The notes below the pieces were generated by a model, which did no database searches, was not told the DNA's origin, and saw only the letters and a list, made by a program, of their open reading frames with translations. The position numbers and the translations under genes are program-made. A stretch of DNA of 64,000 nucleotides from contig OZ024740.1 of NCBI GenBank assembly GCA_964016885.1, positions 167,896,001 to 167,960,000 of the forward strand, in the 5' to 3' direction. This document shows positions 21,859-24,858 of this stretch, one piece after another. The first letter of the stretch is position 1; each line of letters opens with the position of its first letter. Source of the DNA: Eledone cirrhosa (Eukaryota).

Positions 21859-23582
21859 GGCAAAAGTCTATACTAGAAGACATTTTTTCATGATGCCGCA
21901 CATTAAAATCCAATCTAAAACCAGGTGTTTTGGAAACTTAACTTCTTGAACACACAGTAATGCTTACATCCATATCGATTTTCGATGGATTCGCTGTATC
22001 ATTACGATGTTAACCGAATGGAAGTCTTTCAAAATTTGAGTATGGCCCTTTATGTGTTAAGTTCAAATCCTGTCTCTCATCCTTCTATCGACTATAAAAT
22101 AAAATAACAACCGAGTGCTGGGATCAATTTGATATTCCTATAAAGCATTATACATGAGAATTGAATGGTAATAGAAGAATAACAAAATATTCATCACCTG
22201 CGAAGACCAGTGTGCAAAACGTAAGATTATATATATCACTAATGCATTGCCTAATGCTGCGTCCTTCCTTATTTAATACTACTCGGCGCAATGTGAAAGG
22301 TTTAGTTGCTATTTCTATCAGGAAAAGTTATAGCATAGAAGCTTCCGCTTTAACGTGTGTGAGTGTGTGTGTGTGTGTGTGTGTGTGTGTGTGTGTGTGT
22401 GTGTGTGTGTGTGTGTGTGTGTGTGTGTGTGTGTGTGTGTGTGTAGGTCTGTTAACTTGATTAAAAGAGGGCAAGTATCTCGTCTCTCTATTTTTGTTTC
22501 AGGTTGTCAGCAACATAACATGCCAAATGTGATTGAAAATGATTTAAAGAGCAGCAAATAATACAAAATGACGGAAGCTGTTAGGAATATTACAGAAAGG
22601 TATGGGGGAACATATTAGAAAATCAAAGATGTGTGAAAATGTGAAAATGTGAAAATGCGAATATGAAACAGGAAAAAAATGAAGTGAAAATAACGATGAG
22701 AAGTCAGGCACCGAATAAGGAAGAAGATCGGAAATTATCAAACACCACAAATCGTGGAAATAATAAAACAGATTCAATTATTTTAAAGATATGAAAATGA
22801 TGGAAAATGTACTGAGGTTAATAGCAGATGAGAGGACAGGAATAAACTTAAGAAAAAACAAACATAAAGAAACTAAAACCACCACGCATAGACACATACA
22901 GACATAACAAGCACCACATATACGTTACACACCACACCACAAACACACACAACACACACATGCACAAGTGTGTATGTGAGTATATATATATATATAAATT
23001 TATATATATATATACAGTACATACAGATATATATATATATATTTATATATGTGTGTGTGTGTGTGTGTGTGTGTGTATATATATATATATATATATATAT
23101 ATATATATATAAATATATATATATGTATATATATATATGTATATAGGTAAATATTTATATTATATTTTTTAATTTTGATTAATTTTAATTGTATATTAAT
23201 TTTGATTTATTTTGAAAAATTGGTTGAATTTTACTTGTTCTGCTTATCTCGATATTAAGTTCTGGTATATCAAATTATTACCATAGAACCACCTTAAATC
23301 ATAGACACACTATATATTTCCAGGGGTACATTGTACCCTCAGATATATATTAACCTTATTCAACAATCTCCAGTATGTAGAGATACAAATTTGTCGTTCT
23401 ATTTAGTTACTGAAAATCTTTTTTTAGTGGCGATTATAGACGGCGAGTCTAGGATTTCCCGCCTTCACTATACACCAATGTATTTAGGGGTCACTTTCAC
23501 GACCTTTTAGACCTGTATTAGTTGGAGTGAGGTCATATATTTTGTCGTTCCTGGGGTTTTTAACCCTAGGACAGGAAAATGC

Positions 23583-23660
23583 TTCTCTGATGATCGTTGC
23601 TTTTCCATTAATATCCTCGTGATATTTAATGTTTTGCACCGTGAAACTGTACAGTTAGGG
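23583..23660 (+). ncRNA. Type I hammerhead ribozyme
   Basis: ttct-CTGATGA-t-cgttgc..cattaatatc/gatatttaatg..gcaccg-t-GAAA-ctgtacag-TT-aggg. Stem III is palindromic (AACTGTACAGTT), the triplet is GUU and stem I has 4 bp including two G-U pairs. Confidence 0.75.
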
Positions 23661-24109
23661 CCATTTGAATAGGTAAATATTTATATTATATTTTTTAATT
23701 TTGATTAATTTTAATTGTATATTAATTTTGATTTATTTTGAAAAATTGGTTGAATTTTACTTGTTCTGCTTATCTCGATATTAAGTTCTGGTATATCAAA
23801 TTATTACCATAGAACCACCTTAAATCATAGACACACTATATATTTCTGGGGGTACATTGTACCCTCAGATATATATTAACCTTATTCAATAATCTCCAGT
23901 ATGTAGAGATACAAATTTGTCGTTCTATTTAGTTACTGAAAATCTGGTTTTTAATGGCGATTATAGACGGCGAGTCTAGGATTTCCCGCCTTCACTATAC
24001 ACCAATGTATTTACGGGTCACTTTCACGACCTTTTAGACCTGTATTAGTTGGAGTGAGGTCATATATTTTGTCGTTCCTGGGGTTTTTAACCCTAGGACA
24101 GGAAAATGC

Positions 24110-24187
24110 TTCTCTGATGATCGTTGCTTTTCCATTAATATCCTCGTGATATTTAATGTTTTGCACCGTGAAACTGTACAGTTAGGG
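24110..24187 (+). ncRNA. Type I hammerhead ribozyme (second copy)
   Basis: Identical motif 527 bp downstream. Confidence 0.75.
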
Positions 24188-24858
24188 CCATTTGAATAGG
24201 TAAATATTTATATTATATTTTTTAATTTTGATTAATTTTAATTGTATATTAATTTTGATTTATTTTGAAAAATTGTTTGAATTTTACTTGTTCTGCTTAT
24301 CTCGATATATATATATATATATATATATATATATATATATATATATATATATATATATATATATATATATATATATATATATATATATATATATACATAT
24401 ACATATATATATATACATATTCTCACAAGCTCCGATGAATTGACTGGTTATAACTTTGTATTGGTCATCGAATAACGCGAAAATAAGTGGGTAGCGATCT
24501 CTAGACCTACCAGTTCAGAGAAACAATTGTCAGCAATGAGATTAAAATCCTTTTTTGTATAGCAAACCGTGTCACTCTTCTTTCCTGATTTATCATTACT
24601 CCAAGTGTTTACAACATAGGAATTACAGCATATTCGCAGCATCACTATGGAAACGCCTTGTTGAGTCAAACTTAGCCAAGCGTTGATATCATCCACTACC
24701 CGGAGTACCATAACTGGACTACACTTAAGTGGACTACCTATAACAATAATTTGTTACCCCGTATACACATATATATATATATATATATATATATATATAT
24801 ATATATACAATAAGTAAAAGCGAAGTAGTTTCAGATCTTCAAGTCCTTTAATAATAAT

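Follow-up and report, generated by a model that had tools for sequence, protein, structure and literature searches.

Tandem array and its flanks

We analyzed a 64,000-nt stretch of Eledone cirrhosa DNA (GenBank assembly GCA_964016885.1, contig OZ024740.1, positions 167,896,001 to 167,960,000 of the forward strand), the whole of which is called the window here, and within it a tandem array at 23143–24308 whose two full units each bear a type I hammerhead ribozyme motif. The array is very probably a retrozyme of the type without long terminal repeats (non-LTR retrozyme), likely of the kind that derives from Penelope-like elements (PLEs) as a non-autonomous form. The host window is AT-rich and microsatellite-rich. 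On the left of the array lies a (TA)n/(TG)n microsatellite at 22981–23142, recognized by Tandem Repeats Finder (TRF) and in the sequence, which is the likely insertion target; on the right lies a (TA)n microsatellite at 24305–24420 (TRF). Neither has an assigned strand, and the (TA)n tracts as delimited by TRF extend over 22981–23165 and 24305–24420.

Unit 1 (23143–23668, + strand) is 526 bp long with a G + C content of 32%, and it starts 12 nt beyond the register of the predicted ribozyme cut. Unit 2 (23669–24195, + strand) is 527 bp long and 98.7% identical to unit 1, with 7 differing positions, none within the hammerhead. A partial third unit of 113 bp (24196–24308, + strand), with one difference, forms a terminal redundancy that resembles a pseudo-LTR and ends 125 nt beyond the second predicted cut. 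The array totals 2.21 copies. An earlier note, made from the letters of this DNA alone, had described 2.2 copies of a 527-bp unit between two (TA)n tracts; the copy number and the tracts on both sides were borne out, and the unit length holds for unit 2 and not for unit 1. Both unit junctions are uncertain by approximately 2 nt because of TA microhomology. A 39-bp internal hairpin is present at 23312–23350 and 23838–23876, and the two units differ there at adjacent bases, which the decay of one CpG could explain.

No further copy of the unit was found elsewhere in the 64-kb window. The units have no protein-coding capacity (longest stop-to-stop frame, 70 aa), and no terminal inverted repeat was detected at the array apart from (TA)n itself. 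An inverted 5′ copy and a 30–40-bp tail, which are optional traits of PLEs, are absent at this locus, and both flanks consist of (TA)n, masking any target site duplication. ARAGORN identified no tRNA in the array, and the + strand of the unit holds no RNA polymerase III (pol III) A/B box pattern, TATAAA or AATAAA. A short interspersed nuclear element (SINE) of the SMalpha type was also considered, and it was unsupported because neither a tRNA nor pol III boxes were found.

Hammerhead motif and predicted folding

The first hammerhead motif (23577–23666, + strand) was delimited by descriptor search, folding and covariation. Helix I pairs 23577–23586 with 23657–23666, the CUGAUGA core box occupies 23587–23593, and U.U at positions 10.1/11.1 is formed by 23594 and 23642. 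Helix II pairs 23595–23600 with 23636–23641 and holds a 35-nt insert, within which an inner hairpin (23606–23631, from folding) lengthens the helix; its sequence varies in other subfamilies. GAAA lies at 23643–23646 and the helix III palindrome at 23646–23655, followed by U17 (23656), the base 5′ of the predicted cut. The second motif (24104–24193, + strand; U17 at 24183) is identical to the first. On the same strand, CTGATGA starts at 23587 and 24114, and AACTGTACAGTT lies at 23645 and 24172. The core differs from the textbook hammerhead because 10.1/11.1 is U.U.

CTGATGA...GAAA, a GUU triplet and an extended helix II had been claimed for both full units, and this description was confirmed. 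When the unit was dinucleotide-shuffled 5000 times, the full type I descriptor (helices I, II and III and the core) matched none of the shuffled sequences. Applied to shuffles of the first 41 kb, the same descriptor gave one match in 13 of 200. The palindrome had been described as a perfect 12-nt one; its inner 10 nt are the conserved part, since the outer pair needs U17, which is A in many relatives. Rfam yielded no match at the gathering score in the 64-kb window, and around the array at E values up to 10 it yielded 30 matches, with no hammerhead family among them. The exact ribozyme pattern had no match in metagenome, viral or prokaryote genome contigs. The distance from U 23656 to U 24183 is 527 nt, so that the RNA monomer predicted from the fold (23657–24183, + strand) would have exactly the cut-to-cut length foreseen in the earlier note.

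On its own, a helix III hairpin was predicted to be unstable (+1.5 kcal/mol). Between units 1 and 2, by contrast, the two palindromes were predicted to pair at −13.4 kcal/mol with a probability of 0.84–1.0 at 37 °C; at 20 °C, this probability in a two-unit transcript was about 0.5. Folded as a circle, the cut-to-cut monomer of the + strand reached z −5.35 (0/60 shuffles) with 63% of bases paired, and that of the − strand reached z −2.9 (1/40 shuffles). Twenty-four control z values from 12 other stretches of the window, with 10 shuffles each, ranged from −4.27 to +2.61. Two control stretches, 16500–17026 and 24430–24956, fold unusually well (z −4.27 and −4.02), and the latter, which follows the array immediately on its right and has a (TA)n tract on each side, is possibly a further small insertion.

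A long, G.U-rich hairpin of 100 nt (23667–23766) is predicted to fill the terminal 113-nt segment on the + strand only (z −5.05 on + and +1.56 on −). It recurs at the start of the array and in the partial unit, on the same strand as the hammerhead, and is a candidate binding site for a helper protein. A small stable hairpin was also predicted just 5′ of helix I (23549–23571, + strand; seen in the unit 2 copy).

Related copies and covariation

Eleven sequencing runs were listed, and four of them (X1, X4, X6 and X9) were aligned to one unit (23400–23926) at 80% likeness, giving 389, 19, 14 and 220 aligned records. The counts given below draw on the best 40 of 73 rows of differences, on 24 of the 102 loose ends and on 24 of the 427 pieces; summed contig depths are not copy numbers. 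Part of the unit is present in 6 of the 11 runs, from 3 organisms and 3 studies, and next to no unit words occur in X7 and X8. The runs listed as containing it include no RNA run, which has no bearing on expression. The best runs contain 0.54–0.57 of the unit words and therefore probably come from relatives of the host organism.

A 104-nt contig of X1 is identical to the window (depth 1204), an 80-nt contig of the same run has 12 differences (depth 1997), and other contigs of the aligned runs have depths of 2–27 (10–27 in X1). This coexistence of high-depth and low-depth contigs indicates many copies and several subfamilies. The multi-copy status of the family was thus observed in related organisms, and the possibility raised in the earlier note that the repeat is a single-locus duplication can be set aside. 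X1 has the U.U/GUU form of the window over 104 nt without any difference, X4 has it over 221 nt with 2 differences, and X6, at depth 32, over 225 nt with 5. Judged from these contigs, the U.U/GUU subfamily is itself amplified and common to three organisms. Where the units differ at 23487 and 23847, the alleles of both occur commonly across the family.

Covariation of the stems among paralogues, which the earlier note had named as a check, was observed in helices II and III of the relatives. In helix II, 23594 T>G accompanied by 23642 T>C converts U.U into a canonical G-C pair. Its support is 15.7/23.5 at both sites in X4, which is the depth of two contigs that span the whole motif, and 3/19 and 4/17 reads in X9. 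In the same helix, 23596 G>T with 23640 C>A exchanges G-C for U-A (4113/8358 and 2326/8201 in X1; 15.4 and 19.7 of 23.5 in X4; 14/19 and 9/17 in X9), and 23639 C>A mends a U.C mismatch. Loose ends of X4 and X9 read GCTTTG behind the first core box and CAAAGC ahead of the second, which make a perfect 6-bp helix, each from a different run. In helix III, the middle bases 23650–23651 change jointly from TA to AT and the palindrome is preserved (18/29 at both sites in X9; 15.7/23.5 at both in X4; 2488 and 2766 of 9718 in X1). These two bases belong to the loop in a single hammerhead and are paired in the dimer.

Position 17 (23656) is U or A in the family, with T>A giving GUA in 28/34 of X9 and no G among the rows listed. 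Among the best 40 of the 73 difference rows, no difference falls within 23577–23593, 23643–23649, 23652–23655 or 23657–23663, so that the core boxes and the inner seven pairs of helix I are free of changes. The outer part of helix I is not conserved among relatives.

Ends of the array

On its right side, the array stops 125 nt beyond a predicted cut; on its left side, it begins 12 nt beyond the cut register, at the foot of the terminal hairpin. In X9, 69 restriction site-associated DNA (RAD) reads leave the unit at 23783 and enter (TA)n(TG)n, which is the register of the right end in the window (24308 corresponds to 23781). This end likely belongs to a locus other than that of the window, because it has a different flank and two other differences. 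Another 17 reads of X9 and one contig of X4 continue into the next unit. In X1, the summed depth is 10.3k at 23666, 29.5k at 23670 and 25–71k per bin over 23670–23777, and then 13k.

The earlier note had suggested checking whether start and end points are circularly permuted among copies. So far, the observations go the other way: a second copy runs into (TA)n from the same right end, and the depth of X1 steps at both end registers. To a modest degree, these sequence data suggest that both array ends recur, contrary to free circular permutation. Of the template proposed in that note, which was circular or terminally redundant, a terminally redundant or multimeric RNA fits fixed ends, and circular permutation is so far unsupported. 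The left end, 12 nt beyond the predicted cut, suggests a linear, partly cleaved template. The retro-transposed origin of the array was supported.

Comparison with known retrozymes and Penelope-like elements

The retrozyme class has already been described (Cervera and de la Pena, 2020, PMC7229834; Li, Clavereau and Pollet, 2026, bioRxiv 10.64898/2026.07.22.740005). PMC7229834 defines non-LTR retrozymes with units of 150–450 bp, names PLEs as likely helpers and demonstrates circular retrozyme RNAs in coral, mussel and axolotl, while the circular-template model itself is presented as a hypothesis. The preprint gives unit sizes of 51–972 bp and ties retrozymes to the pseudo-LTRs of PLEs. The array at 23143–24308 has at least two tandem units, each full unit with a complete type I hammerhead, is non-coding and has a G + C content below 50%. 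It is multi-copy in related organisms, with a conserved core, covarying helices and a self-paired predicted monomer.

Animal non-LTR retrozymes in both studies likewise consist of non-coding, head-to-tail units with one type I hammerhead each and G + C below 50%, and they share with the array a palindromic helix III for dimer cleavage and a self-paired predicted monomer. The U.U at the base of helix II resembles that of the axolotl hammerhead HHR_Amex2, which cleaves better as a dimer (PMC7229834). The 527-bp unit exceeds the 150–450 bp of PMC7229834 and falls within the range of the preprint. The array, known here from DNA alone, differs from these retrozymes in its 35-nt helix II insert and its apparently fixed ends.

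The closest published match is the Hydra clade of PLEs (Craig et al., 2021, supplement S1, S2; PMC8557442). In the Hydra-clade table, whose family counts were read by eye, U.U occurs at 10.1/11.1 in 14 of 25 families and G-C in 7, with G.U (3 families) and U.C (1 family) making up the rest; A occupies position 17 in 11/25, U in 10/25 and C in 4/25, and 10/25 families have the GUU triplet. The distance from the cut to the 3′ end is 29–152 nt in 23 of 25 families (one has 354 nt, and in one the hammerhead lies in the 5′ repeat), and (TA)n is the target in 26 of 27 listed families. All core states of the unit family occur in this table. Hydra-clade PLEs and the array have in common a core of CUGAUGA-U...U-GAA or G...C with U or A at position 17, a 4-bp ACnn/nnGU helix III with a 1–3-nt loop, a (TA)n target, a partial tandem arrangement and a hammerhead 29–152 nt from the 3′ end; the exact 125-nt end of the array family is known from two loci. 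Decay of the window ribozyme to its U.U and GUU state was considered and dropped, as both U.U and GUU occur in the Hydra-clade table and the U.U/GUU subfamily is present in three organisms.

Because its core, (TA)n target and cut-to-end distance match those of Hydra-clade hammerheads, the array is a new family of a known kind. Descent from a Hydra-clade element is likely. A helper of the Hydra type is rather probable. The (TA)n target alone is not diagnostic, since it is common to Neptune and Naiad. The array is not an autonomous Hydra-clade PLE because it has no reverse transcriptase (RT) and C-terminal GIY-YIG frame (RWK, DKT, CxCX5C), and it also differs from these elements in lacking the inverted 5′ copy and the 30–40-bp tail. 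As a weak test, 11 exact short words of the unit were compared with the consensus set in the supplement of PMC8557442 and gave no match. No description of the family was found in the literature searched; Repbase and Dfam were outside the comparison, and the family may already be named there.

Three other systems are partly similar. In the Poseidon PAc element of the green anole (Frangieh et al., 2024, PMC11167929), reverse transcription has an internal start, located at fixed sites approximately 85–92 nt past the hammerhead cut. The element resembles the array in having a fixed end shortly beyond the cut, beside a stem-loop, and an AT-rich target. Unlike the array, it is autonomous, and its hammerhead, which overlaps the start codon, is assisted by protein. 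The minimal hammerheads of metazoan PLEs (Cervera and de la Pena, 2014, PMC4209133) have a longer helix II, a palindromic helix III and low predicted activity as monomers, as in the array. Neither the bulged base that follows A9 in these ribozymes nor their G10.1-C11.1 pair is present in the window copy, whose helix III has 3–4 bp and is not minimal, and some relatives of the unit have G-C at 10.1/11.1 without the bulge. Finally, non-autonomous Chlamys elements such as MRC1 (PMC8557442) are also non-autonomous PLE derivatives with multi-copy, head-to-tail insertions, but they are green algal, mostly without a hammerhead and inserted into (CA)n or (C)n targets.

Other elements in the window

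The window has three more Penelope-like insertions, one of which codes for a GIY-YIG fragment, and the genome therefore carries or carried the needed machinery. The coding one (947–2589) is a 5′-truncated Penelope-like insertion in (TA)n with a tail of approximately 40 bp and 546-bp inverted arms (947–1492 and 2002–2547; 99%). It contains an open 159-aa frame (1521–2000) with a GIY-YIG-like C terminus and Neptune/Nematis-type cysteine motifs, as well as a minimal hammerhead-like motif near 2289–2330 with a weak helix I. The frame matched no Pfam family and had no longer homologue at E 0.001, and its Atlas neighbours at 0.96–0.97 include GIY-YIG clusters (13–18% of members). This element is probably not the helper of the array, because its cysteine motifs are of the Neptune/Nematis type and it has no sequence in common with the unit.

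On the − strand at approximately 26250–27045, a short type I hammerhead (at 26452) has A.A at 10.1/11.1, a 4-bp helix III and GUC. This element has 104-bp inverted arms (26252–26355 and 26937–27040), adjoins (TA)n and represents a third hammerhead family in the window. The array at 32.7 kb (32748–34423, − strand) comprises 3 units and approximately 40 bp followed by an inverted end segment, with U.U at 10.1/11.1, a 2-bp helix III and, inside each unit, a separate (TA)n tract whose length varies; the z of its monomer, −16, is inflated by the TA tract and palindromes. The earlier note had called the two arrays unrelated. This stands for the sequence, as only low-complexity pieces of 20–41 nt are alike (best E value, 0.24), and not for the class, which is the same given their common U.U core variant and (TA)n target. 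An inverted 5′ copy and a tail, the PLE traits, are present both at 947–2589 and at 32748–34423.

Approximately 10 dispersed copies of a SINE-like repeat, 200–250 bp in length and 60–96% alike, occur at 6231–6463, 9836–10043, 11774–11973, 14751–14810, 16136–16343, 29235–30067 and 39620–40013, in tandem at 29.2–30.1 kb. At 40997–63456, 644 copies of a 35-bp unit (88% matches) form a 22.5-kb array with an extreme strand skew (GC skew about −0.9), which may represent either a satellite or an exon of the mucin-like, threonine-rich kind. Two similar short sequences that adjoin (TA)n in opposite orientation (27080–27110 and 35250–35290) are possibly the ends of another TA-targeting element.

Proposed mechanism and alternative explanations

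The reading that we favour, with a probability of roughly 0.6 for the mechanism as a whole, is retrotransposition from a linear template. The + strand would be transcribed as a multimer, in which the 10-nt palindrome would bring two adjacent hammerheads into pairing and cleavage would be slow, and partly cleaved multimers would therefore persist. A helper protein, a reverse transcriptase and endonuclease of the Penelope type and probably a Hydra-clade member, would nick the (TA)n DNA. Target-primed reverse transcription would start at a fixed point 125 nt beyond a cut, just 3′ of the 100-nt hairpin, read through uncut ribozymes and stop near an upstream cut. The outcome would be n + 0.21 copies with fixed ends, with n = 2 at this locus.

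A number of observations weigh against this reading. The hammerhead fold (−8.5 kcal/mol) lies 5.9 kcal/mol above the best local fold (−14.4 kcal/mol), and the pair probability of helix I in the two-unit transcript is 0 in a model without core tertiary contacts; on these predictions, cleavage would probably be slow or assisted. Of the nine predicted Xenopus retrozyme dimers examined in vitro, one alone cleaved (bioRxiv 10.64898/2026.07.22.740005), and cleavage by Poseidon is dispensable for insertion in vitro, where no reads end at the cut (PMC11167929). The 35-nt insert in helix II compares with loops of 3–10 nt in the Hydra-clade table, no autonomous element with the end of the array was found (the published set was compared by exact short words), and the GIY-YIG fragment of the window, compared by eye with PMC8557442, looks Neptune/Nematis-like and not Hydra-like. 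The covariation is also imperfect. In X1, 23594 is G in 3303/8358 but 23642 is C in 0/8201, which would leave G.U; the TA>AT change could be a single micro-inversion, and 3 of 9 double changes would keep the palindrome anyway. Among the best 40 of 73 rows, 23664 T>C and 23666 T>A disrupt pairing at the outer end of helix I, as 23670 T>G does for one pair of the terminal hairpin, unless partner changes occur in the other 33 rows. Sites are unphased except where contig depths coincide. As for the ends, the 69 X9 reads are RAD reads that probably represent one locus, and AT-rich false matches inflate depth (at 23671–23729 in X6; absent at 23742–23795).

The main competitor, about half as probable to us, keeps the same class and replaces the linear template by a circle: both hammerheads would cut, a host RtcB-type ligase would close the 527-nt monomer, and the helper would travel around it 2.2 times, as in the published retrozyme model and as the earlier note allowed. 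Retrozyme circles are established in coral, mussel and axolotl, where a U.U hammerhead cleaves as a dimer (PMC7229834), and the predicted circular monomer folds well, although 2 of the 24 control folds of the window likewise fall below z −4. The near identity of the units suits a circle, with 2 of the 7 differences at the one site where CpG decay could account for them, as does the right end, which copying from one set internal point of the circle would fix equally well. Two features find no reason in a circle, namely the start of the array 12 nt beyond the cut register (13/527 positions, one copy, post hoc) and the X1 depth step between 23666 and 23670. The two alleles that are both common at 23487 and 23847 also fit a mixed multimer, if weakly.

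Explanations at the DNA level fare worse. That the array is an orphan pseudo-LTR or minisatellite of an old Penelope-like insertion, multiplied by unequal crossover or gene conversion with the hammerhead as a relic, appears improbable. Local tandem growth from a terminal repeat has been proposed in the preprint of Li, Clavereau and Pollet, in which 8 of 9 dimers were inactive, and the active fold here is not the predicted ground state; against a relic stand the paired changes of helix II and helix III, a core that is free of changes in the best 40 of 73 rows, a hairpin on the + strand only, another copy that ends alike in (TA)n and an amplified U.U/GUU subfamily in three organisms. Still less probable, and largely excluded by the covariation, is a mobile element of the DNA type that targets TA, such as a miniature inverted-repeat transposable element (MITE) or a Helitron-like element, with a chance hammerhead-like string. 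It would account for the TA flanks and the several hairpins, but there is no terminal inverted repeat beyond (TA)n, the structure relies on G.U pairs of one strand, and the motif is both absent from 5000 shuffles and covarying.

The role of hammerheads in endonuclease-bearing PLEs is stated to be unclear in PMC8557442. A stricter form of the linear-template reading, which we put forward tentatively and consider less likely than not, holds that both insertion ends are fixed, the right one by an internal start of RT and the left one by the hammerhead cut or helix I, so that copies would measure 0.21, 1.21 or 2.21 units and derive from linear, partly cleaved multimers used by a Hydra-clade enzyme. 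With its high copy number, ribozyme cores that vary between subfamilies and a 113-nt terminal repeat with sharp limits, this family is a valuable test case, in which the mapping of ends alone could decide between a circular and a linear template. If the stricter form is true, the family would constitute evidence from the genome that the 5′ end of Penelope-type insertions is determined by a slow U.U/GUU hammerhead, and such retrozymes would need no circular template.

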